Part shown: positions 7,208 through 57,676 of the stretch, in pieces
How the letters are laid out: the number at the start of each line of letters is the position of its first letter
Position numbering within the stretch: position 1 is the stretch's first letter
From: Candidatus Culexarchaeum nevadense
GTDB taxonomy: Archaea > Thermoproteota > Methanomethylicia > Culexarchaeales > Culexarchaeaceae
Direction: 5' to 3'
Assembly (NCBI GenBank): GCA_025060975.1
Contig: JANZKA010000001.1
Coordinates: forward strand, 108,283-172,282
Length of the DNA: 64,000 nt
The notes under the pieces: model-generated
The model's database searches: none
What the model was told of the DNA's origin: nothing
The model's input: the letters and a program-made list of their open reading frames with translations, nothing else
Translations under genes and position numbers: made by a program

Positions 7208-7810
7208 TTATTGATATCTAGATATATCTTCTTCAAGTTCTTTTATTTTTCTCTCCAGAAAGTTTATTATTTGAGCGTTATCAAAGGATTCTAGGTTTCC
7301 ACCACATATTTTACATTTAAAGCCATATTCGGATGCCTCCTCAAATGATAATCTAATTTTATCTTTTGGGCAAAAGAAGAAGACATGCTGTTTTTCATAT
7401 TCATATCTTTCTTTTAGTTTTTCCAAAACGGCACGTTTTTTTGAACGCACTAAGAATTCTATATTGTCTCTGTTAAGACGCCATAGATAAATGAACCAAC
7501 CTGTTGTTTTGTCCCTTATCCTCTTATAGGAGACTAGTTGGTTATCATAAAGAGTGTATAGAATCTTTCTAACATTATTAAGTTTTATTCCGGTTTTTTG
7601 AGATAAAATTTCATCTGTAACGTCGTAATTCTCTGATAGAAAGGAAACTATAGCAACACCTTCTTCTCCGACGAGCTCCCTTATGAATGCTATGAAACTT
7701 TCATCAAGAGGTATAGATTCAAAGTATTCGTACACACTTATTTCACTCCTTTCAATTGTATTTGAGTCCTGACAAATTATTTTGTCAAAGAAGCATTTAA
7801 AACCTTTCAA
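7208..7810 (-). CDS. tfe: transcription factor E (TFIIE-alpha homolog)
   Basis: N-terminal winged helix (LVGEEGVAIVSFL..DEILSQKTGIKLNNVRKILY) and a Zn ribbon (FFCP..CKICGG). Confidence 0.8.
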   Translation of the reverse strand: MKGFKCFFDKIICQDSNTIERSEISVYEYFESIPLDESFIAFIRELVGEEGVAIVSFLSENYDVTDEILSQKTGIKLNNVRKILYTLYDNQLVSYKRIRDKTTGWFIYLWRLNRDNIEFLVRSKKRAVLEKLKERYEYEKQHVFFFCPKDKIRLSFEEASEYGFKCKICGGNLESFDNAQIINFLERKIKELEEDISRYQ

Positions 7811-7816
7811 TTTTTA

Positions 7817-8413
7817 TTAGATATCATTGGAAACCTTGATAACACGCTTACCTTTTTCAGATGGGATTATTTTAATTTTTGCGTTCTCAAAACTGCTGCG
7901 GAAAACCCAGCCATTCAATAGCTCCAATAAAAAAACTGCTAATGCAGCAACCTCGGAATGCGGTTGATTTCCAATAGCGACATTCCAATCAGCTATCTCA
8001 TAATAAAATCTTGGAACTTTTTCCGCGCCAACAACAACAAGTTTATTTTTACAACTTTTCTTAATATCATTAATTACTAAAGGTAGGTTTATACCATACA
8101 TAGTCAAGTGAATTATTTCACCTCCACCGTTTTTCCACTTAATGCAGTAATCATACGGATCTTCAGTAAAACTTAAATGAAAGGGGCCTCCCCAATTTTT
8201 GCATACCATTGATAATGAAGATAATACTTTTTCGTCACGACAGTCAAGTATCATTCCTCTAGCTCCGAATGCTCTTGCGACTAGACCAACATGTGTAGTT
8301 ATACGTTTATCTCTTGCTGGCCTATGACCTATTCTCAAAACGTATACTTCAAACGTCAATGTTCTTCTCAAAATACTAGAATATGTGACATTATAAATAA
8401 ATATATATTCCAT
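7817..8413 (-). CDS. tRNA (cytidine56-2'-O)-methyltransferase aTrm56 (SPOUT family)
   Basis: VLRIGHRPARDKRITTHVGLVARAFGA signature of aTrm56. Annotated start may be too far upstream. Confidence 0.75.
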   Translation of the reverse strand: MEYIFIYNVTYSSILRRTLTFEVYVLRIGHRPARDKRITTHVGLVARAFGARGMILDCRDEKVLSSLSMVCKNWGGPFHLSFTEDPYDYCIKWKNGGGEIIHLTMYGINLPLVINDIKKSCKNKLVVVGAEKVPRFYYEIADWNVAIGNQPHSEVAALAVFLLELLNGWVFRSSFENAKIKIIPSEKGKRVIKVSNDI

Positions 8414-13019: not shown

Positions 13020-14045
13020 TTAAAGATAATCCCTTACGTCACTTAATATACAATGAGGAATAGTTATGTCTTTCATAGTCAAAAGCCCTGGAGGAGCCTT
13101 CATAACCTTTGGTATAACATTTATCAACATTGAAATAGTACCCCAATCACCATGCACACAAGGGGATATCCGTTCGTGGATTTCAGGTATTCCCTGTATA
13201 TCGATGGCATCATAATCATCAGATGCACCAACATATGCTATAAAATCAAGAGTTATGAATGGTTTCCCATCTACGACGCCTTGGGCTGTTTGTCTCAGTC
13301 CAGCTACATATCCTGGATTGACTTCTACATATTCTGTTTTCACATATTTATCAGAAATGATAGGTTGAACTTCTCCAACATCAATTCTGTCAAGTTTAAC
13401 TTTAAGTGCAGCTGCTATTAACGCTATACTCTGTTCTAACCCCACATGACCAGAAATCTCTTTTGTAGAAATCTTACGTTTAAAATCATCCACAGTTAAT
13501 CCTGCTCCTATTTTTCTCTGAAAGGGACCTCTCCTAATAGATGCATTCATATGTCTAGTAACCTTAATGCTATCAACCCTTATACAAGGTGCCGTTAGTA
13601 TTATAGCTAAAGTATCCATGAGAAAGCCTGGATTTATGCCCGTGGCTAGTAAAGTTGATCCATATCTTTTAGCAGTACTATCCAATTCTTCAGCAAGTTT
13701 CCGATCAACAATATACGGATAACTCAATTCTTCACATGATGAAATTACATTCACTCCATACTTAAGTATAGTAAGTAGCTGAGGATACACATCCTTGAGA
13801 TATGATGATGTCATGTGAATAACTACATGAGGTCTCGAGTCTCTCAATACACACTCAATATCATTAGAAACATTTATACCAAGTTTCTTATCTAAGCCTA
13901 TCACTTCCCCAAGATCTCGTCCAACCTTTTTTGGATCAATGTCAACGGCTCCGACTATTTCAAACCCCCGTTTATTTAATAGCTCTCTAGTAAGCATCTG
14001 CCCTATTGCTCCAATACCTACAATGACCACTCTAACTTTCTCCAT
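13020..14045 (-). CDS. NAD(P)-dependent oxidoreductase, DapB-like/amine dehydrogenase family
   Basis: N-terminal Rossmann motif (VRVVIVGIGAIGQ). Overall resemblance to dihydrodipicolinate reductase-like / 2,4-diaminopentanoate dehydrogenase-like proteins. Start placed at the internal MEKVRVV. Confidence 0.5.
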   Translation of the reverse strand: MEKVRVVIVGIGAIGQMLTRELLNKRGFEIVGAVDIDPKKVGRDLGEVIGLDKKLGINVSNDIECVLRDSRPHVVIHMTSSYLKDVYPQLLTILKYGVNVISSCEELSYPYIVDRKLAEELDSTAKRYGSTLLATGINPGFLMDTLAIILTAPCIRVDSIKVTRHMNASIRRGPFQRKIGAGLTVDDFKRKISTKEISGHVGLEQSIALIAAALKVKLDRIDVGEVQPIISDKYVKTEYVEVNPGYVAGLRQTAQGVVDGKPFITLDFIAYVGASDDYDAIDIQGIPEIHERISPCVHGDWGTISMLINVIPKVMKAPPGLLTMKDITIPHCILSDVRDYL

Positions 14046-20200: not shown

Positions 20201-21937
20201 ATGCGTTCAAGGGATTTAAATAGAGTAGTTATAGTAGATGGGTATAATGATGAACCAGCTGGATTAGGTGTGCCTCCTTATCTAGACGTGTATGCGAGAT
20301 ATGCCGCTGGAACTATATGGAAATATAACAGTAAGGTAAATATAAGCTATTATACAATTGATGAAGTGCGTGAAAATTTTACAGAGTATTTGAAGATAAT
20401 GAATAAATCAGATATGCTCATAGTACTCGGAGGCGTAAGTGTACCCGGAAGTTACATTGGAGGAGAACCAATAACCGAGGAAGAAGTTTTGAAGATCGGT
20501 ACTTTAATAATGAAACCAATAAAAGTCCTAGGAGGACCTATCGCTCGTTACGGTTTTTGTAAAGAAGGAGGGAAAAAAGCTAAAAAAATTGAGCATATAA
20601 AGAACTTGTATGATTTAGTGATAAGTGGGGATATAGAAGTCGTACTCTCAGATTTATTAATAAATGATCTGGGGTTTGATAAGATAGATCCAGCTTCTAG
20701 GAGAACGGATTATTCTATTGTAAAAGAAGCGTCCATAAGAGGAGCGAGAATAGTCCAAGATCATCCAAACTATGGATTAAACTTGATTTGTGAAATAGAA
20801 ACATATAGAGGATGCCCAAGGTATATTACAGGTGGTTGCTCCTTTTGCGTTGAACCATTATGGGGCCATCCAATATTTAGAACAATTGAAGATGTAATAA
20901 TGGAAATAGCATCTCTATACAATCAAGGGGTTACGCATTTTAGAATTGGAAGACAACCAGATCTCTATTGCTACCTTTCAAATGAAGTTGGAGAAAAGGA
21001 ATTCCCCCGCCCAAATCCAGAAGCTTTAAAAAGACTTTTCGAAGGTATTAGAAGGGTTGCACCACGTTTAGAAACTTTACATATTGACAATGTAAATCCT
21101 GGAACTGTAGCAAATTATCCTGAAGAAAGCAGAGAAATAACGAAAACAATTGTAAAATATCACACTTCCGGTGACGTAGCTGCTATGGGGATAGAGTCAG
21201 CAGATCCAAGAGTTATAAAGGCAAACAATCTAAAAGTTGAGCCAGAAGATGCTTTAAAAGCAATAAAAATAATAAATGAAATTGGTGCTATAAGAGGGGA
21301 GAATGGTCTTCCCGAATTATTACCTGGAATAAATTTCGTTCATGGATTAATTGCTGAAAGTGAGGAAACGTATAAACTAAATTTCGAATTTATGAAGGAA
21401 GTTCTAGATAAGGGACTACTTGTGAGGAGAATAAATATAAGACAATGCATACCACTACCCGGGACTAGAATGTGGGAGGTCGGTGATAAAATAATGAGGA
21501 AACATAAAAGATATTTTAGAATTTACAAAGAGAAAATGAGAAAAGAAATTGATAGACCTATGCTTAAAAGAATTATTCCAAAATATACTATCTTAAAAAA
21601 GGTGTTTGTAGAAACAAAGCAAGGAAACATAACATATGGTAGACAAGTAGGTAGCTATCCACTTCTTGTAGCAATACCATTTGAATACCATTTGAGAAAA
21701 TTTACAGATATCATAGTTATTGGTCATGGTTATAGATCCATACTAGGAATACCTATACCAATAGAAATCAATATATGGAATAGGAGACAATTAAGTAAAA
21801 TACCATGTTTTAAAGAGCCTTATGCATCAAAAATAATAATGAATAGACCCGTAAGAAGTATTGATGAATTGAAGGAAATTATTGGTGATTCTAAGAAGTT
21901 AGATTATGTAAGTAGATATATTAGCTTCCGTGAATAA
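20201..21937 (+). CDS. radical SAM domain protein (uncharacterised archaeal family) with non-canonical Cys spacing
   Basis: 578 aa. Putative cluster-binding Cys triad [13 protein letters not shown] (C-x7-C-x2-C). Radical SAM core-like segment follows. N-terminal domain of about 190 aa of unknown type. Confidence 0.5.
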
Positions 21938-34904: not shown

Positions 34905-36521
34905 TTATAATTGGCTAATAGTTTTAGTAACAACATTTAATAAAGGAAAGCGATTAACAAATACTTTTAATTTAATATTTTTGTTTTTCAAAAGTTTAAT
35001 TATCTTCTTCATAGATGCTAATGTAATCGCTGTTGTATCAAAAAGTACTATTGCTTTGACATAATTATTTTTCTCCAACAATATTTTTAATGCTGATATT
35101 ACTACCCTTTCTGATTCAATGTTTATTTTACGTGCTTTTTCATATTGAGAAAGAGGGTAAACGTTAATCAGTTCTAATGGAATTATCCCAAATGGAGGAC
35201 CATAAATACATATGTGAAAGCCTTTGAGAGAAAGATCATCATCTAATTTTGATAGTGTTATAAGTTGCTTTAGTAGATATAATGAATATTTACGTGATTT
35301 TTCTCCCTTGTCCGGTATAAGTATTAATGTAGTTTTGTCTGGAAATGATACATTTTTCTTTAATTTTAGTAAATGTCTCGTGACTTCAGGTCTTATAAGA
35401 CCTTCAGAAGAAATATAGAAGATACCTCTAGTTACGCTTTTAATTATTGGATCGTATTTTTCAATAATAAATCTATACTTTTTTAATTTAAGTAACGCAT
35501 TAAAAAGTCGAGGGTGAGATTTTGCTTTTACTTCTATGAGTTCCCACAAACGTCCTTCATAAATTGCTTGTTTTATTTGATTCATTTCATTACATATAAT
35601 CCATAAATTATGTTTTGCTAACAGTTTTTCACGTTCAAATTTACTCATTTCTAGCAAATCATTAACTTCATATTTTTTACAGACATCACAAAAACAGGGC
35701 AAATATTTAAGGTTTGATAACTTAATAGTACCATAAGAAGTCATGTAACGATCATCTTTTGCAAAAAGTGCATAAGATGCTGAATCAAAGGTATCACACC
35801 CCAATGCCACCAGAAATGGTAATAGTATAGGATGACCAGCCCCGAAAAGATGCAAAGGACCATCTTTTGGTAAGGACATTTTTATAGTCATAATAATGTC
35901 AACAAGGTCTTCAAATGCATAGCTCTTCATGTATTGTGTTGGTCCACCTACACCATACATTTTAATTGAAGGAAATTGACTCATTTTTACAGTGCATTCT
36001 TTAACCAAATCTAGGTACTTACCTCCTTGTATTGGTCCAACCCAAATTATGTCATCTCTTGTCTTCATTTGCTCCAATATCATAGCATTATTTAATGTAG
36101 CAAGAACGGTTTTTTCGGCTTCAACTTTTGTGTAAGTTTTCAATGTAGGAATATCTAAGATAACAGAAATATCACTATTCAATTTTTCCTGAAAAATTAT
36201 GGCTTCTTCAGGATTAAAGGAGATATTACCATAACTTAGTATTTGATAAGCGCCAGAATCCGTCATTACTATTCCATCAAAATTCAGTAAAAGATGTACA
36301 TCATTCATATGTAGGAGCCCTCTTTCTATTGCTTGCTTTATTAGGTACGAATTTATCATTAGCTGCTTTATTTTAAAGTGCTCTTTTATACTCGCTACGT
36401 CAATAATGTTTTTTACTGGGTCAATTACTGGAAAAAATGCAGGGGTGTGTAACACCCCACTTTTCGTCTTTAATTTACCGATTCTACCCATTAAATCTCG
36501 ATCCACTATTTCAAATGACAT
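34905..36521 (-). CDS. tgtA: archaeosine tRNA-guanine(15) transglycosylase (arcTGT)
   Basis: 538 aa. TGT catalytic motifs (VMTDSGAYQ, Zn site CFCDVCKKY) with C-terminal extension domains. Confidence 0.85.
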   Translation of the reverse strand: MSFEIVDRDLMGRIGKLKTKSGVLHTPAFFPVIDPVKNIIDVASIKEHFKIKQLMINSYLIKQAIERGLLHMNDVHLLLNFDGIVMTDSGAYQILSYGNISFNPEEAIIFQEKLNSDISVILDIPTLKTYTKVEAEKTVLATLNNAMILEQMKTRDDIIWVGPIQGGKYLDLVKECTVKMSQFPSIKMYGVGGPTQYMKSYAFEDLVDIIMTIKMSLPKDGPLHLFGAGHPILLPFLVALGCDTFDSASYALFAKDDRYMTSYGTIKLSNLKYLPCFCDVCKKYEVNDLLEMSKFEREKLLAKHNLWIICNEMNQIKQAIYEGRLWELIEVKAKSHPRLFNALLKLKKYRFIIEKYDPIIKSVTRGIFYISSEGLIRPEVTRHLLKLKKNVSFPDKTTLILIPDKGEKSRKYSLYLLKQLITLSKLDDDLSLKGFHICIYGPPFGIIPLELINVYPLSQYEKARKINIESERVVISALKILLEKNNYVKAIVLFDTTAITLASMKKIIKLLKNKNIKLKVFVNRFPLLNVVTKTISQL

Positions 36522-36967
36522 TAAGCTTCACTTTTCCCTCTTTCTTGTATAAATTGTTCATACACTTTCTTCACTTTTTCTGCTATTACACCACTTCCTT
36601 CAATTACCCCATCTTCAGTTACTCTCACTTTATCCATAACGATTATCACGCCAGCGTCTTCAAGTAATGTTACATTATTTGGGAATAGTTTTTCTAATCG
36701 TTGAGCTAGTCCTTTCAGATCAAATGGTTCCTCTTCTCTTATTATTTCGGAGATTACTTCTCCCCTCACGAGTATTCTTGCATAGTAATTGTTCTCTTCG
36801 TCCTTGGCATTCGAAAGAATTATGTTTAATGAGTTTGGGTCATATCCTATAAGTTTCCCACGAAATTTCTTGTTATAAACTGTTCTTACACTTACGTTCT
36901 TATCTAGCAGAGATGCAAGTTCCCTTAAATACCTTGTCATGCTTGGAGTAACAGGACCACTCATCAA
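36521..36967 (-). CDS. Sm-like (LSm) protein with C-terminal extension domain (SmAP3-like)
   Basis: Sm motifs in the N-terminal half (NVSVRTVYNKKFRGKLIGYDPNSLNIIL). About 70 aa extra at the C-terminus. Confidence 0.55.
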   Translation of the reverse strand: MMSGPVTPSMTRYLRELASLLDKNVSVRTVYNKKFRGKLIGYDPNSLNIILSNAKDEENNYYARILVRGEVISEIIREEEPFDLKGLAQRLEKLFPNNVTLLEDAGVIIVMDKVRVTEDGVIEGSGVIAEKVKKVYEQFIQERGKSEA

Positions 36968-37205
36968 ACTATTCCTCCAAAAATAAAAATTTAAAAATAT
37001 AATTTATATTTTTGTTTAATGCTTTGCCGAGCGGCATAAAGATTTAGATTTATAATTACTTCATTTTCGTTAACCACTCACATATACATTATGATTAGTT
37101 AAAATTCACTTTTAAAATAAGTAATTATACAAATATTAATTTAAAATATACAATATTGTAAGAAAAAATTTATTATGTTATAAACGATTATAATTTTGAA
37201 CCTTT

Positions 37206-38180
37206 ATGGAAGACAATGAAGGGGTAACTAAATGTAAAGAGTGTGGTGGTAGACTAATAATTTCAGATTATGGAGAATTAGTGTGTTTAGAATGTGGTCT
37301 TGTCCATGAAAGGGTTTATCTTCAACCATTATTTGAAATAGAACCATTATCCGATTTTTCTGCTGTTGAAAAACTTTATGTGAGCCCTGATGGAAAACCT
37401 TTAAGAAAAGAAGATTTAGGTTCCACATTTATTAATGTAAAGGGAAAACTCAAAGATAGTAAAGGAAGGGGGATAAATGAACAACGTTTTTTAAGATTAG
37501 GAAAGGTGAATACAATCTATGTTAGAAAACATGATAAAAGTCTAAATGCAGTTATGACTTTACTTAGAGTATGCTCATTACTGAATATACCAAAAAGTGT
37601 TTATGAAAGAGCAGGGTACATTTGTAATAAAATATTAAATGATAAAAAGAAGATTGGTACAACATATCAATTGGCAGCAGCATCATTAATCGTAGCATCC
37701 AGAGAACAAAAATATCCCTTAACTTTAAAAGATGTCGTGAAGATTTTCCGTGAATTAGGGCATAAGATTTCAGTAAAATCCATAATGCGCATAACTTCCA
37801 ATATTTTACGTGAATTCTCTGTAAAGAGCATAACCATGGAGCCTAAAGATTATTTAACTAAAATAATACACATTTTAAAAAGTAATGAAGAAATCAATAG
37901 AAGAGTAATTTATTCCACTGGTAGAAAGCCAGAGGAATACTATAACAGTTTAATGAACTGTTCTCTCTCAATTTATGAAAAAATAGACGAAAAATTTAGA
38001 ATTGGGAAGAACCCATACTTGCTAGCAGTGTCAATTGTCTACTTTGCAGACAAACTATTATGTAAAAAATTAAATTGCCAACAAATTTTGTCTCAGAAAC
38101 TAATTTCTGAAGTTTTGGGATCAACACAGTATACTCTTAGACAACATATGAAGTACTTAAATAGATTAATAGAAAATTGA
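37206..38180 (+). CDS. divergent TFB/TFIIB-family transcription factor paralog
   Basis: N-terminal Zn ribbon (CKECGGRLIISDYGELVCLECGLV), two cyclin-like repeats and a C-terminal HTH-like segment (GSTQYTLRQHMKYL). B-reader/linker region atypical. Confidence 0.65.
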   Translation: MEDNEGVTKCKECGGRLIISDYGELVCLECGLVHERVYLQPLFEIEPLSDFSAVEKLYVSPDGKPLRKEDLGSTFINVKGKLKDSKGRGINEQRFLRLGKVNTIYVRKHDKSLNAVMTLLRVCSLLNIPKSVYERAGYICNKILNDKKKIGTTYQLAAASLIVASREQKYPLTLKDVVKIFRELGHKISVKSIMRITSNILREFSVKSITMEPKDYLTKIIHILKSNEEINRRVIYSTGRKPEEYYNSLMNCSLSIYEKIDEKFRIGKNPYLLAVSIVYFADKLLCKKLNCQQILSQKLISEVLGSTQYTLRQHMKYLNRLIEN

Positions 38181-38270
38181 AGTTGAGTGAGAGAAGTGAT
38201 GATCAATCACTGACTGATATTCTTACTACAAGCATTAAAATATAAAAATAACTGCTATTAATAAAGGGCA

Positions 38271-40232
38271 TTGGAAGTATTACTAAAACCTCCAAGGATA
38301 ATGTACGTGCAAAAGAAGAGTGTTATAGTTTCTTTTCATGATGAAATGAATATCAGTGAGAACATAATGTATGGCGATTTCTTTAGCAATTTAACTCTGA
38401 TTATTAGCTCATTGCTACCATTACATTTTTACAATTTAAATTTAATAGACATAGATGGTATTAATGGTTATTTGAGAAAAAATATTAAAAGTATTCTTAA
38501 ATATACGGAGTTGCTGTTTAAAATACGTTTTTCAGAGAAAAATATCATAAACCTAGTTTTCAAAACAAATTTGAAAGATAAATTTCAAATTTATCCAACT
38601 GCTGGAACATTCTTTAATCCACCACTTAGTGATTACGAGAAGGAAATCGTAGAAAGGGAAATAAATTATTTACCAAAAGATTTAAAGAAGCTAATAAAGA
38701 GGCTTATAATTTACTCAAATGTTTTTAAGAGAACAGTGAAAATACGTGAATTGAAAAATAAAGAAGAGGAATACTTGTTGAACAAGAAAATGGATTTTGA
38801 TACGTATACAGTTAACATTTTTGATGTAAGTAGATGTGTTGATAAAGAAAGAGTAAAAGTTTATTACAATATTAAGGTTAATGAATCAAACATAAAACTA
38901 ATACCAGTTATATGGTGTTTAACAACATTTTTAGAGATCAGCATTCCAAATTATAACACAAAATTTGGACCGGGATTTATTGAGGAATTAATGAGGTATC
39001 GAGAAAGTATTGCGAGAAAGATACTAAGAGAAAACTTTATTGAAATACCAGAAAATCTGCATGAAAAACTGTGTATCGCATCAAATCTAGCGGCTATGGG
39101 CATGTTTAAATTAACACCCCTTATCCTAGATGACAATGTAGAGGAAATATACATAGACGGCCCTGAAAAAAATATATATCTAGATCATAGCGAATGGGGA
39201 AGATGTGAAACAAAAATATCATTGAATGAAAATGAAATGAGATGTTTAGCAACTTACATAAAAGCTGAAAGTGGCTTACCATTAGATTATGCTTCACCTA
39301 CGATAAAAACGGATTTAAACACCAGATTTTTCAAGTTGAGAATAAATGTTGACACATATCCACTAGTAGACACAAATTATGTATTTATAATTAGAAAATT
39401 TAGAAGGGAACCTTTAACAATAATAGACTTATTAAGAAAGGGGACTCTCACAATAGATGCTCTCACATACCTTTTGATAGCCTTATTTCATAAACGTAAC
39501 ATTCTTGTTGTTGGGGAACCATCTTCTGGAAAAACAACCTTAATAAACGCACTAGATATGGTTGCACCATCGTATTGGAGGAGGATATCTGTGGAAGAAG
39601 TTGTTGAAAGTTTGAATTTAACAAAGTATGGCAAACATGATATAAAGTACAGAGTAGACTCGTTTGACCAAGATCCATCTAGTAGAAGAAGATTCGTGGA
39701 GACCATCAAGTTGCTACATAGATCACCAAACTATATATTCTTTGGAGAACTCCTAACACCAGATCATGTTTCAATATTTCTCCAATCATTAGAAGCAGGA
39801 TTACATGGCATTCAAACAACACACGCTAATTCCCCTGAAGCATTAATAAGGAAGTGGATATTTCATTATAAGTTACCTATACAATCAATAGGAAATTTAG
39901 ATGTAATAGTACATATGAAGAGAAAATTATCTTACAATGAGAATAGAAGGTTTGTATATAGAATAGTTGAACCTATTGTAAAGGATGATGAAAAAGAATG
40001 TAAAATTGAGTTATCAGACTTGTTCATCTACAATGAAGGTTTAAAATTGGTTAAGGACTTGAAAGAGTCATTTGTATTTAAAAAAATAGTAAAGGAAGAG
40101 CATGTATCTATCGAGGATCTTTATGAGGAATATACATCATTTAAACAGTTAATAAATCAGCTTCTAGAAAAAGACGGTGAATTAATAAGTATAATTCAAG
40201 CATTTGATAAAATGTCAACTTTTAGGGCATGA
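38271..40232 (+). CDS. type IV filament secretion ATPase (FlaI/CpaF/VirB11 family) with ~280-aa N-terminal extension
   Basis: Walker A VVGEPSSGKTTLINAL, Walker B/Asp box NYIFFGELL and His box GIQTTHANSP. Confidence 0.8.
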   Translation: MEVLLKPPRIMYVQKKSVIVSFHDEMNISENIMYGDFFSNLTLIISSLLPLHFYNLNLIDIDGINGYLRKNIKSILKYTELLFKIRFSEKNIINLVFKTNLKDKFQIYPTAGTFFNPPLSDYEKEIVEREINYLPKDLKKLIKRLIIYSNVFKRTVKIRELKNKEEEYLLNKKMDFDTYTVNIFDVSRCVDKERVKVYYNIKVNESNIKLIPVIWCLTTFLEISIPNYNTKFGPGFIEELMRYRESIARKILRENFIEIPENLHEKLCIASNLAAMGMFKLTPLILDDNVEEIYIDGPEKNIYLDHSEWGRCETKISLNENEMRCLATYIKAESGLPLDYASPTIKTDLNTRFFKLRINVDTYPLVDTNYVFIIRKFRREPLTIIDLLRKGTLTIDALTYLLIALFHKRNILVVGEPSSGKTTLINALDMVAPSYWRRISVEEVVESLNLTKYGKHDIKYRVDSFDQDPSSRRRFVETIKLLHRSPNYIFFGELLTPDHVSIFLQSLEAGLHGIQTTHANSPEALIRKWIFHYKLPIQSIGNLDVIVHMKRKLSYNENRRFVYRIVEPIVKDDEKECKIELSDLFIYNEGLKLVKDLKESFVFKKIVKEEHVSIEDLYEEYTSFKQLINQLLEKDGELISIIQAFDKMSTFRA

Positions 40233-40253: not shown

Positions 40254-41090
40254 ATGTTTTTTAGGGTTTTTTCATCATTTCAACCACCATTTTTCAAAAA
40301 ACTTTTAAGAAAGCATGTTCCTCAACTGTTCACTGAGTCTATTAATTTTTTGAAGAATAAATATGAAAAATTTGAAGTATCATCTGAAGATGTTTATGCA
40401 AATATCATAGTTTCTTTACTAGTAATTTCGGGAGTAGTATTGCTCATAAGCATCAATTTTGTAAAGGATACTGTGATTTCATTTTTGATAACTCTATTCT
40501 TTACGATTTGCATTTATATTTTGATATACTATGAAATCGTGGGGGAGTATAATCATGATAGATTCCTAATACATATGTACAAGTTCATGGCATTTAGAGA
40601 CATGGTATTGGCTTATAAATCCACAAACTCCATTTTTGAAGCTATAAATTTTGTCGCATGTGGGAACTATCCAATAATTTCAACCAATTTTGAAGTAATA
40701 CTTAAAAATATTATAAATGGATTTGATCCGGAAAAATTTTCAAGCGAAGCAACAGAGTTAAAGATTATTAGTTCATTACTAAACGAAATGTTAGTAAATG
40801 TAAAAAATGCAGAGAAAAGTAAAGAATACATGTCGGCAAAGGATGTGTTAAATGCATACGAGAAATTGTTTTCCAAAATAGAAGCCTATTGCTTATTTTT
40901 ATTATTCATTGGAATGCTACTTCCATTATCGTTGATGTTTATCATTCCACATCTTAATAGATTTTTCCCAATAACTTTTATAATGCCATTATTTGTTTTA
41001 CTCCAAATTATAAGCTTGATTGTATTATCGAGAATTCTATTATCAAATATTCATGTTGCACTAGGAGGAGGATCTCATGAAAATCTATGA
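40254..41090 (+). CDS. TadB-like (T2SS-F/GspF-domain) platform membrane protein
   Basis: Single T2SSF-like cytoplasmic domain between TM helices. Stop overlaps the next start (ATGA-type coupling). Confidence 0.6.
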   Translation: MFFRVFSSFQPPFFKKLLRKHVPQLFTESINFLKNKYEKFEVSSEDVYANIIVSLLVISGVVLLISINFVKDTVISFLITLFFTICIYILIYYEIVGEYNHDRFLIHMYKFMAFRDMVLAYKSTNSIFEAINFVACGNYPIISTNFEVILKNIINGFDPEKFSSEATELKIISSLLNEMLVNVKNAEKSKEYMSAKDVLNAYEKLFSKIEAYCLFLLFIGMLLPLSLMFIIPHLNRFFPITFIMPLFVLLQIISLIVLSRILLSNIHVALGGGSHENL

Positions 41091-41826
41091 TACCCCATTA
41101 ATATCATTAACCATATTCGTAACTTTTCTTGTCATAATATTTCTTGTAAAAAAGAAGGAAATTAAGAAACAAATTAACGTGAGAGAGAGTTTAAATGAAA
41201 GTCTTAAACTTGAAAATTTCATAACGTTGTTCATAAATAATTTGAAGGCTAATAGAGGTGCGGAATGGGCATTACTATCTACTTTGAATGAATATCCTGA
41301 GGACGAGATTCGATCACTAATAATACAAAACATCACTATAGGATCCTCGATTGAAGAAATTTTTGAAAATTTATCGAATACTTTTTCGATGGAAGAAAGT
41401 AAACGAATGTTAAGGATTATTTCAAGAATGATCTCACATAATTTAAAGTATTTCACATATTCCCTTTCTTCTGACATATTGGATTATGTAAGAGAGTCAA
41501 TTCGATTAAAAAATCATATAGAAGCATTGTTATTTAGAACAAGGATTAAGGTATTAGTACTTTCATTTTCTCTATCAGCGGTTTTAGCGTTTCTTTCAAA
41601 AATTTTACCGTTTATTTTAGCGTTCTTTATCAGTGAAAACATGATTTTAAACGATATAAACTTTCTATCGTTGCTGACTTTCTATTCATTCCTCTCAGTA
41701 TCACTATACGATACATATATTGTTTCAAAGGCAGTCTTTTATTCCCATAGCGTTCTACTATCAATACTTTCGGCGTTAACCTTTGTTTTTTTACATACAT
41801 TTCTCCCAAACATATATAGTATTTAA
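41077..41826 (+). CDS. TadC-like (T2SS-F/GspF-domain) platform membrane protein
   Basis: N-terminal TM helix, soluble T2SSF-like domain and several C-terminal TM helices. Confidence 0.6.
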   Translation: MKIYDTPLISLTIFVTFLVIIFLVKKKEIKKQINVRESLNESLKLENFITLFINNLKANRGAEWALLSTLNEYPEDEIRSLIIQNITIGSSIEEIFENLSNTFSMEESKRMLRIISRMISHNLKYFTYSLSSDILDYVRESIRLKNHIEALLFRTRIKVLVLSFSLSAVLAFLSKILPFILAFFISENMILNDINFLSLLTFYSFLSVSLYDTYIVSKAVFYSHSVLLSILSALTFVFLHTFLPNIYSI

Positions 41827-41856
41827 ATACCGTAGGGAATCTTCAAAATAAGGGTA

Positions 41857-42090
41857 GTGAAACGCTTTTCAAAATATAGTAAGAGAGTGAAAGGTTCTCC
41901 ATTATTGGAAGAAGGATTACTTATAGCATTGGCAGTAATAACTATGTCTGTAGTATTTTCAATGGTGTTAGGAATATTGGATGGTGTGCAAAAAGTCATT
42001 CAGAATTTAGGATTTAACACTCAGAATTTTATGAATTCATTAAATGATCTATGGAATAAGATAATTTCATTTTTGGGATTGGGTGGTTGA
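41857..42090 (+). CDS. Flp-like prepilin (class III signal peptide)
   Basis: 77 aa. Basic leader ending KG then SPLLEEGLLIALAVITMSVVF (Glu at +5 and a hydrophobic helix), resembling the Flp G/xxxxEY pattern. Confidence 0.55.
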   Translation: MKRFSKYSKRVKGSPLLEEGLLIALAVITMSVVFSMVLGILDGVQKVIQNLGFNTQNFMNSLNDLWNKIISFLGLGG

Positions 42091-52565: not shown

Positions 52566-54066
<1,501 letters not shown>

Positions 54067-54169
54067 TAAGTCATAACATGGGGGGCCACGTGTGGGGGTC
54101 GGGCCCGTTTAAATGCAATCTGAAGGAGTATTTCCTTCAGATGAAGGGCGGAGGGAAGTACATCCTTAT

Positions 54170-54228
54170 GATCGCCATGCATAGTTAGGAACGTGAAATG
54201 GTGTATTTTGCAAGTTATGCCACGAGTA
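54170..54228 (+). other. 5' arm of the 23S pre-rRNA processing stem
   Basis: ATCGCCATGCATAGTTAGGAA..GTGTATTTTGCAAGTTATGCCAC is reverse-complementary to 57283-57345. Confidence 0.7.
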
Positions 54229-54229
54229 A

Positions 54230-57280
<3,051 letters not shown>

Positions 57281-57282
57281 CG

Positions 57283-57345
57283 AGGTGGCATAACTTGCAA
57301 AATACACCAAACGATATTCCTAACTATGCATGGCGACACTAAGGG
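57283..57345 (+). other. 3' arm of the 23S pre-rRNA processing stem
   Basis: GTGGCATAACTTGCAAAATACAC..TTCCTAACTATGCATGGCGA is reverse-complementary to 54170-54228. Confidence 0.7.
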
Positions 57346-57676
57346 GGTGAGTGGTGGAGCAGGCGCCGGGCAGGGGATACCCCCTGCCTGAGGAAGCCCA
57401 CCCCCATTGTGGCACCGCAACCCCCTTATTCTTGGGGGTAGGATGAGAATCCTAGCATAGCACAGAAACGACACCCCTTCCAGTCAGATGAAGATGATGT
57501 AGCATAGGCCTTGCAAAAGGCCGAGCAAGCTATTGATGAGGCTGGAAGACTGGTTGCAACGGGCTAGCTTGCGGGGGTAAGGCCAAAAAGGAGCCTATGA
57601 GGGCCACATGAGGCTCGGGTAGGCCGCTTAGACGAATCCTGCTGAAAACAAAAGGTGGGCTACCACCACACACCCC

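Follow-up and report, generated by a model that had tools for sequence, protein, structure and literature searches.

A divergent, full-length TFB paralogue linked to a type IV filament ATPase module in Methanomethylicia and Asgard archaea: a possible dedicated initiation factor

A stretch of 64,000 nucleotides (nt) from Candidatus Culexarchaeum nevadense (assembly GCA_025060975.1, contig JANZKA010000001.1, positions 108,283 to 172,282 of the forward strand), here called the window, carries a gene for a divergent protein of the TFB/TFIIB family of transcription factors. We conclude with high confidence that this TFB-like protein is not a general TFB but a specialised paralogue, that the unnamed family of which it is a member comprises at least 156 clusters at 50% identity, and that the family is obligatorily linked to a module built around a type IV filament ATPase. 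The reading that we favour, tentatively and at a little short of an even chance, is that the protein serves as a dedicated alternative initiation factor for this filament module, with altered reading of the TFB recognition element (BRE) and altered promoter opening.

Profile comparisons and a predicted structure indicate that the protein is a complete member of the TFB family, in which the zinc ribbon and both cyclin repeats, recognised in the first-pass annotation from the sequence alone, are real. The ribbon cysteines are arranged as C10-x2-C13 ... C27-x2-C30-G; the Pfam family A2L_zn_ribbon exceeds its gathering score, Zn_Ribbon_TF on residues 9-35 falls slightly under its own (E 2e-6), and the AlphaFold2 model has three short strands in the ribbon. 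Pfam TFIIB matches residues 114-181 above its gathering score, and the canonical motifs A...L.A.RE and P.TL.E are retained in cyclin repeat 1. The model, built with 17 homologues and having a mean predicted local distance difference test score of 73, contains two five-helix repeats (residues 111-204 and 213-323), and cyclin repeat 2 holds an extra insert of about 20 residues (~229-248). Its confidence is low at residues 38-109, which is to be expected because the segment equivalent to the B-reader would fold only on the polymerase. Superposition with Foldseek laid the model over TFIIB in pre-initiation complexes and over TFB cores with template modelling (TM) scores of 0.74-0.79, among them Pyrococcus TFBc (1d3u_B, TM 0.79, root mean square deviation 3.1 over 217 columns; 1ais_B, TM 0.79). 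The family profile matched human TFIIB over residues 8-315 (E 8e-17), and hhalign against a profile of 15 canonical TFBs, taken from both TACK and Asgard lineages, gave a probability of 99.7% over 282 collinear columns. The open reading frame (ORF) can be taken as a real gene, because it has homologues at 97%, 81% and 64% identity and on down to 25%, and because a block resembling a BRE and a TATA box is conserved upstream. This block, TAAGAAAAAgTTTAATA, is kept before the TFB-like gene in eight Methanomethylicia-type loci, whose proteins are 41-64% identical, and looks like an ordinary BRE and TATA box.

A word-indexed search with the window protein gave only 18 relatives. When 1.84 billion cluster representatives were searched with a profile, 156 passed E<1e-30, 1072 passed E<1e-10 and 2889 passed E<1e-3. 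Those members that carry an organism name belong to Ca. Methanomethylicia/Methanomethylicota, uncultured Thermoprotei, Nitrososphaerota and the Asgard Heimdall-, Baldr-, Odin-, Jord-, Thor- and Kariarchaeota, most of them annotated as 'hypothetical protein'. The family appears to evolve fast, because its mean column identity over 80 members is 30%, against 68% for canonical TFBs of TACK and Asgard archaea. Only three residues are invariant in 80 diverse members: two ribbon cysteines, C27 and C30, and, in the recognition helix, R312. All three fall in elements that TFB function needs, which supports the view of the protein as an initiation factor. The zinc ribbon of TFIIB and TFB recruits the polymerase, and R312 is aligned with the invariant arginine of canonical VTVRNRY and with R286 of human TFIIB, the residue that reads the BRE in TFIIB-DNA structures. 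The recognition helix is STEYTIRQH in Methanomethylicia, VAE[YF][ST][IV]RDH in Asgard types and VTEVTVRNRY in canonical TFBs. Some family members are long (P0109, 850 residues; P0087, 2330 residues; P0077; P0090; P0100), one with C-terminal leucine-rich repeats and the others with unannotated extensions; no fusion of a TFB-like protein to the ATPase was found among them, none carrying a T2SSE domain.

The ribbon and the cyclin repeats are joined in canonical TFBs by the B-reader and the B-linker, and the earlier claim that the signatures of both are missing here withstood alignment against canonical TFBs: the motifs stay missing once gaps are placed by hhalign, although the segment is collinear. 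EWR.F is found in 0/164 family members, compared with PEWR[AT]F in 152/166 canonical TFBs, and [RK][KR]WQ in 0/164 compared with 142/166. The alignment sets PLFEIEPLSDF of the window protein over GPEWRAF (residues L.E...LSDF) and YV--SPDGKP over RSRVGSP, and in the linker sets DLGSTFI over GLSTVID, KDSKG over KDAMG and RFLRLGK over RWRKWQI. The canonical invariants W53, R54, R66, G68, W110, Q111, R113, R115, R122 and N123 are all substituted; the canonical anchors E44, F51, S60-P61, L71-G-S-x-I and K83-D84..G87 are kept. From the canonical B-linker signature (GLST.ID ... R.RKWQ.R.R ... DRNL) only the strand L-G-S-x-I and KD..G survive, and the anchors G72, D84, G87 and F95 are kept family-wide. 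Matches of residues 63-101 (window 37392-37508; INVKGKLKDSKGRGINEQRFLRLGK) to ubiquitin residues ~22-52 (E 0.003-0.5), in a stretch that coincides with the segment aligned to the B-linker of canonical TFB, were set aside as probably compositional; no stretch was significant alone.

In place of the canonical B-reader, the subfamily has a motif of its own, PLFEIEPLSDFSA..K.YVSPDGKP (residues 41-65, nt 37326-37400). This is the best-conserved stretch of the protein in the Methanomethylicia subfamily, with 80-96% identity against 41-64% for the whole protein, a degree of conservation that marks the replaced B-reader as being under strong purifying selection. The spacer from the ribbon to GLGS is 37 residues in the window protein, and the median is 37 both in canonical TFBs (n=138) and in the family (n=115), an agreement that would follow if the segment had still to reach from the polymerase dock to the cleft. 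Because the segment is collinear, of canonical length and the best conserved in the subfamily, the B-reader region has been exchanged for a new functional motif and has not simply decayed. The new segment is also the more acidic, having a net charge of -3 in the window protein and of +1 in the canonical Methanomethylicia TFB P0246, and the median number of basic residues in it is 3 in the family and 7 in canonical TFBs. In Pyrococcus furiosus TFB1 the B-reader region contacts the template strand, and basic residues there cross-link to the template (PMC13502027). Altered initiation properties may thus fairly be inferred from the replacement of the B-reader by a different, more acidic motif.

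The proposal that the protein is a specialised paralogue and not the general factor is borne out by its scores. With the NCBIfam model NF001658 (transcription initiation factor IIB; cut-off 384) the window protein reaches 69.9 bits and family members 30-87 bits, whereas canonical TFBs of AT-rich Methanomethylicia, retrieved with a Sulfolobus TFB1 sequence that is 95% identical to a database entry, reach 473-503 bits and are ~70% identical to Sulfolobus TFB1. One metagenome-assembled genome (MAG), GCA_025061245.1 (Ca. Culexmicrobium profundum GB-1867-035), has a canonical TFB (P0290) on contig JANZKD010000004.1 and, on contig JANZKD010000029.1 (locus L015), a family member that shares 48% identity with the window protein and has the same operon behind it. 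The presence of both TFB types in this MAG shows that the family is a paralogue, subject to binning error. A canonical tfb beside this type is thus seen in a related genome and not within the window, where phmmer searches of all six-frame ORFs with the window protein and other TFB sequences gave no second tfb. No canonical TFB lies in loci L001-L044 of our set, and the canonical TFBs P0246, P0247, P0275 and P0241 were traced to assemblies other than those of the closest homologues, P0003 and P0004.

To assess the linkage to the ATPase, the six-frame ORFs of the loci surrounding family members, 35 from genomes and 80 from metagenomes (113 non-redundant), were searched with the window proteins. 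An ATPase gene lies within 5 kb of the TFB-like gene in 92/113 loci, all 21 negatives being cut by a contig end, and in 67/67 of the non-redundant loci with at least 3 kb of flank on both sides. The linkage holds through at least four arrangements of the genes. In the window the order is TFB-like gene, ATPase, membrane protein 1, membrane protein 2 and a 77-residue protein, all on one strand, and the Methanomethylicia arrangement keeps the TFB-like gene co-directional with the ATPase and platform genes. In most Asgard-type metagenome loci the order is TFB-like gene, ATPase and pilin, with gaps of -112 to ~170 nt. In Heimdall loci the TFB-like gene and the ATPase are convergent, with two membrane genes between them, and a divergent arrangement also occurs.

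The module is probably a minimal type IV filament system, although its membrane proteins match no T2SSF model, because it combines an ATPase of the FlaI/GspE/CpaF class with a pilin-like gene that has a class III signal peptide motif. Among known structures the window ATPase matches afGspE best (2oap, E 3e-27), then FlaI and CpaF; its best NCBIfam model is FlaI, far under the cut-off, and its orthologues carry PF00437 and PF27713 (UCP018868; a new family). It has a cysteine-free N-terminal extension of ~245 residues, while many Asgard-type ATPases have a Cys-rich motif at the N terminus (for example C-x2-C-x2-C...C). Walker A reads GEPSSGKTT, and the Walker B region of the module ATPases reads GE[IL][QL]T.E (GELLTPD in the window) rather than the GEVRG.E of afGspE, the Walker B glutamate being kept. 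Both membrane proteins read as two transmembrane (TM) helices, a cytoplasmic domain and two further TM helices, the domain in membrane protein 1 being helical and ~115 residues long. Both are conserved beside the ATPase in Methanomethylicia and Asgard loci; neither has a Pfam or NCBIfam match that would assign it to T2SSF/TadC, and they are put forward as candidate platform proteins. The pilin-like family has the motif [KR][KR][GA]-SP[LI]LEE followed by a hydrophobic helix. The motif is conserved across phyla and fits a class III signal peptide with a glutamate at +5, as in Flp pilins. The 77-residue protein of the window matches Pfam Pilin_N weakly (E 0.005, under the gathering score), and homologues are present in 69/113 loci.

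Table 1. Positions in the window of the TFB-like gene, its domains, the filament module and promoter-like elements
Feature	Positions	Strand	Basis
Promoter-like block GTAAGAAAAAATTTATTAT: purine-rich BRE-like stretch and TATA-like box, ~30-48 nt before the ATG of the TFB-like gene	37158..37176	+	Upstream alignment
TFB-like gene, 324 residues; divergent full-length TFB/TFIIB-family protein	37206..38180	+	ATG-to-TGA ORF
Zinc ribbon, residues 10-31 (CKEC...CLECG)	37233..37298	+	Pfam Zn_Ribbon_TF, A2L_zn_ribbon
B-reader-equivalent segment, residues 36-69	37311..37412	+	hhalign
B-linker-equivalent segment, residues 70-110 (DLGSTFI...KD.KG...RFLRLGK)	37413..37535	+	Alignment with canonical GLSTVIDW..KDA.G...RWRKWQ
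Cyclin repeat 1, residues 111-205	37536..37820	+	Pfam TFIIB, AlphaFold2 helices, Foldseek
Cyclin repeat 2 and C-terminal helix-turn-helix, residues 206-324	37821..38177	+	AlphaFold2, Foldseek, profile alignments
Recognition helix STQYTLRQH, residues 306-314	38121..38147	+	Within cyclin repeat 2
TATA-like box ATTAAAATA between the TFB-like and ATPase genes; possible internal promoter	38234..38242	+	Conservation
Type IV filament ATPase (FlaI/GspE/CpaF class), 653 residues from TTG; alternative ATG at 38301	38271..40232	+	Pfam T2SSE
Membrane protein 1, 278 residues; candidate TadC-like platform	40254..41090	+	Topology from sequence
Membrane protein 2, 249 residues; second candidate platform	41077..41826	+	Topology from sequence
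TATA box TATTTAAATA within the 3' end of the gene for membrane protein 2, ~30 nt ahead of the pilin-like gene	41820..41829	+	Sequence reading
Flp-like mini-pilin candidate, 77 residues (KRVKG/SPLLEEGLLIALAVI...)	41857..42090	+	Family motif, weak Pfam Pilin_N

The recognition helix of TFB binds directly beside the TATA box, at the BRE position. Heimdall-type loci carry one and the same sequence, GTGGWGYTKAWATA, a G-rich block abutting a TATA box, both before the ATPase operon and before the pilin-like gene, which is unlinked to it and lies 5-8 kb away. Its exact matches number 39 in 140 loci (~2 Mb): 24 before the ATPase, 14 before the pilin-like gene and one elsewhere. In locus L016 two matches (13967-13980(-) and 20477-20490(-)) stand against 0.01 expected, and the sequence occurs in 28 other loci too. 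The 14 matches before the pilin-like gene include those of four metagenome loci (L075, L078, L080 and L135) whose TFB-like proteins differ in type, and in other lineages the pilin gene is preceded by GGGGGC-TTTAAAAGG or GGGGAG-TTAAAATA. The promoter of the TFB-like gene itself lacks the G-rich block in Heimdall-type loci. Exact counts of GTGGWGYTKAWATA were used in place of a generic scan for a G-rich hexamer and a TATA box, which was too noisy and badly specified. The shared promoter signature of ATPase and pilin has the look of a dedicated factor/promoter pair, and together with the linkage to the ATPase in 67/67 loci it points to a dedicated positive factor. In the Methanomethylicia-type loci, TTAAAATA or TTAATATA stands at the TATA-like box between the TFB-like and ATPase genes, with a Shine-Dalgarno-like AAGG(G/A/T) ~20 nt further on, and a box TTTAAATA precedes the pilin-like gene in related loci, as TATTTAAATA does in the window.

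The DNA upstream of the TFB-like gene has features of its own. A region of constant length, ~160 nt, carries the invariant boxes TTACTTTCGG..A.CTCTCTTTCT and CTGAAAC..AGTTAGGA in 82/117 loci; in the window they are degenerate, at ~37060-37075. A second copy of both boxes (AGTTAGGAG-N8-TTACTTTCGGCAACCTCCYCTT) is found ~90-115 nt upstream of orc1/cdc6 in these Asgard-type loci. In locus L084 the boxes are at ~7800-7960(+) and ~4068(-). The possibility that the region forms a structured RNA was rejected, since there was no Rfam match and no RNAalifold consensus structure, and the boxes are regarded as regulatory boxes at the DNA level. They may be a shared regulator site that couples the TFB-like factor to the replication initiator orc1/cdc6, with which the factor appears to be co-regulated through this element in some Asgard lineages.

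In 46 loci, four of them of Methanomethylicia type, the TFB-like gene is directly preceded on its own strand, at a distance of 120-232 nt, by an ORF of ~120 residues resembling rpoG/Rpo8 (for example L086:7408-7773(+) and L009:7468-7842(+)). The matches to PF16992 take in most of the model at E 4e-4 and 5e-5, under the gathering score. This neighbour ties the factor to the polymerase and so favours a role in initiation. No Rpo8-like ORF was found in the window, where the upstream neighbour of the TFB-like gene is an Lsm gene.

How a dedicated factor of this kind might work can be sketched from its parts. The zinc ribbon would still dock the factor on RNA polymerase, the 37-residue segment equivalent to the B-reader would be threaded towards the active-site cleft, and the two cyclin repeats would bind promoter DNA bent by the TATA-binding protein (TBP). 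Given a changed BRE-reading helix (TEYTIRQH, or AEY[ST]IRDH in Asgard types, against TEVTVRNRY) and a lineage-specific B-reader motif, such a factor would select a different class of promoter from the general TFB and open it differently. It may need help in opening, as P. furiosus TFB2 needs TFE-alpha. Its targets would be the linked ATPase, the two platform-like membrane proteins and the Flp-like mini-pilin, so that it would correspond in archaea to a dedicated sigma factor, of which FliA of the flagellum is an example. That the factor binds TBP, DNA and polymerase, which genes are its targets and in which direction it regulates them are all read here from sequence and gene context, and each is put forward on that footing.

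Several observations weigh against a dedicated initiation factor. The GTGGWG signature is absent in the window lineage, where the TATA boxes of ATPase and pilin look ordinary and are preceded by ACAAGC and ATATAG, and the promoter argument consequently rests on relatives. Moreover, GTGGWGYTKAWATA was counted in the very loci that yielded it, many of the Heimdall loci being close relatives, and a different regulator whose site overlaps the BRE could equally well account for it. The segment is net acidic and has lost the basic residues through which P. furiosus TFB1 cross-links to the template (PMC13502027), which might block promoter opening. Finally, strict adjacency to the ATPase, often with overlapping genes or very short spacers, would be equally expected from a physical partnership. 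Such a partnership is the chief alternative: the TFB-like protein would be a working partner of the ATPase, and a repurposed filament machine would control, sequester or localise the factor and, through it, RNA polymerase, for example as a checkpoint like that of FlgM and sigma-28 or in signalling from membrane to transcription. This we regard as rather unlikely, though deserving of weight; it is compatible with a role in initiation, and it echoes the idea of a 'transcription-related pathway' put forward by Makarova and colleagues for subclade 4D of the type IV pili (T4P). Genes so often overlapping or less than 100 nt apart, in a linkage found in 67/67 loci, are typical of the subunits of one complex; 46 of the clusters include an rpoG/rpo8-like gene, as has been reported for Thermoproteus (PMC4858521); and the neighbours are housekeeping and information-processing genes rather than islands of surface structures. 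At the N terminus, many family ATPases have a small Cys-rich domain of the kind known from arCOG05558; the lineages that differ in the type of their ATPase N-terminal domain also differ in their B-reader motif; and the Walker B motif, GE[IL][QL]T, is atypical. However, no TFB-ATPase fusion was found among the long family members, a pilin-like gene so well conserved and bearing a class III signal peptide suggests that a filament is really made, and the Heimdall-type TFB-like and ATPase genes are convergent and not co-transcribed. A broader form of coupling can be imagined, in which the factor would belong, with the rpoG/rpo8-like gene, the atypical ATPase and its membrane partners, and the mini-pilin, to one ancient device, older than the split between Asgard and TACK archaea, that couples a membrane or surface machine to RNA polymerase, with the state of the ATPase or filament gating the factor in a checkpoint like that of FlgM and sigma-28. 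We think this doubtful.

If the exchanged segment were unable to position the template strand, the protein could, as the first-pass annotation suggested, be a competitive or inhibitory TFB, which occupies TBP-promoter complexes, the polymerase dock or both and damps transcription globally or at particular promoters. The protein retains ribbon and core, has a net acidic B-reader-equivalent segment and has lost all the canonical B-reader and B-linker residues that mutation and cross-linking have shown to matter for opening (PMC13502027). Nevertheless, an inhibitor is distinctly unlikely: the replaced segment is the best conserved of all and keeps its exact length, so that a new positive function fits better than mere loss, and inhibition gives no reason either for a linkage without exception to one gene module or for a promoter signature common to that module. 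The similarly divergent P. furiosus TFB2, besides, activates initiation (PMC13502027). The strict linkage to the ATPase, the very low similarity to TFB models (30-87 bits) and the fast evolution of the family (mean column identity of 30% against 68%) would all suit a cyclin-fold and zinc-ribbon scaffold that has left transcription to become a cytoplasmic accessory subunit of the filament machine, like the ATPase partners of the ArlH/ArlX type in the archaellum. Such a scaffold is very improbable when the invariant residues belong to the polymerase-recruiting ribbon and to the DNA-reading arginine, the spacing from ribbon to linker is canonical and rpoG/rpo8 is a frequent neighbour. That the gene might be the sole, fast-evolving general TFB of its host, or a decaying, pseudogene-like copy, is suggested by the lack of a second tfb in the 64-kb window; it is close to refuted by the existence, in AT-rich Methanomethylicia, of canonical TFBs with ~70% identity to Sulfolobus TFB1, by the one MAG of the class that has both types, and by an intact ORF with a family conserved across phyla and a conserved promoter. 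A dedicated initiation factor thus remains our preferred reading.

The surroundings of the operon in the window include a pair of genes on the opposite strand, for an Lsm protein with an Lsm_C extension (SmAP3-like; 36521-36967(-)) and for the archaeosine tRNA-guanine transglycosylase (34905-36521(-)), which overlap at stop and start. The pair is syntenic with the TFB-like/ATPase operon in those Methanomethylicia loci that reach far enough upstream. Further away, the window holds 16S (52566-54067) and 23S (54213-57295) rRNA genes and, 52 nt past the 3' end of the 23S rRNA, an RNase P RNA gene (57347-57673(+)) that seems to belong to the rRNA transcription unit; this rRNA/RNase P block has a G+C content of 55-58%, against ~32% in the rest of the window.

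Archaeal transcription is usually thought to have diversified through paralogues of TBP and TFB, of which few have a known regulon. The present family comes with a probable regulon attached, a minimal filament machine, and the Asgard loci add, where the BRE would lie, a candidate for the cognate promoter element, so that the idea of an 'archaeal sigma factor' becomes directly testable. The family is also a natural experiment on the B-reader, in which a different conserved motif, identical in length, has taken the place of this segment. Type IV filament systems had been thought rare and minimal in Asgard lineages, and the combination of TFIIB, secretion ATPase and RPB8, previously described only for Pyrobaculum and Thermoproteus, appears to be widespread in Methanomethylicia and in most Asgard lineages.

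That combination provides the closest published case, the T4P 'subclade 4D' of the Thermoproteales with its TFIIB homologue, which we liken to the window module by gene neighbourhood and description and not by sequence. In Pyrobaculum and Thermoproteus, subclade 4D comprises an ATPase with a small Cys-rich N-terminal domain (arCOG05558) and a protein with 4-5 TM helices, without a pilin; its TFIIB homologue, arCOG05559, has one cyclin domain, stands alongside RPB8 and is specific to these two genera (PMC4858521). Makarova, Koonin & Albers (2016) suggested a transcription-related role for subclade 4D, and TFIIB homologues are frequent among the predicted regulators of T4P loci (PMC4858521). A later account repeats the description under the name 'Subsystem 4D' and credits Asgard genomes with few, simple core systems, leaving a TFB-like partner unmentioned (bioRxiv 10.64898/2026.04.22.720090). 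The clustering of a TFIIB-family gene with a FlaI-like ATPase and a protein of 4-5 TM helices is matched by the neighbourhood in the window. The adjacent RPB8/Rpo8 is matched in 46 related loci, though not in the window, and the Cys-rich N terminus of the ATPase in many related loci, the window ATPase having instead its long Cys-free extension. In contrast to subclade 4D, the window family has two cyclin repeats and not the single cyclin domain of arCOG05559, it has a conserved pilin-like gene where the other has no pilin, and it is spread far more widely, through Methanomethylicia, Thermoprotei MAGs, Nitrososphaerota and many Asgard lineages.

With canonical TFB and TFIIB (NF001658; PDB 1d3u, 1ais, 7nvu) the window protein shares the order of domains, the length of reader and linker and a helix-turn-helix with a BRE-reading arginine. 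It differs in that PEWRAF, the reader-loop R..G, RKWQ.R.R and DRNL are substituted, in its changed recognition helix, in the insert of ~20 residues in repeat 2 and in its filament-ATPase context. The best mechanistic precedent, going by its published description, is P. furiosus TFB2, which has a divergent B-reader and linker and is active, with poor promoter opening that is rescued by TFE-alpha (as summarised in PMC13502027). Unlike the window family, however, that protein is a lineage-specific euryarchaeal paralogue. We know of no association between it and a type IV filament ATPase.

The first-pass annotation had drawn an analogy with TFB3-type factors, which does not hold. TFB3 is truncated, without the cyclin core and without DNA binding, whereas the window protein is full length, with both cyclin repeats and a C-terminal helix-turn-helix; the two are alike in being non-canonical TFB paralogues with a specialised role. 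After UV damage, TFB3 of Sulfolobales has pili (Ups) and genes for DNA exchange among its targets (PMC6101594, PMC6101591). Sulfolobus TFB2, a TACK paralogue linked to gar1, drives cell-division genes and is auto-regulated (bioRxiv 10.64898/2026.09.06.749720). It resembles the window protein as a Thermoproteota TFB paralogue with a specific regulon, and differs in being syntenic with gar1 and having no link to an ATPase, where the window family is syntenic with the ATPase and, often, with rpoG. Archaeal TFB paralogues can thus act like dedicated sigma factors, and in this respect the window family may be compared with FliA (sigma-28) and FlgM, by functional analogy only, since the protein families are unrelated: in both cases a dedicated factor would be encoded within, and act on, the genes of a surface filament.

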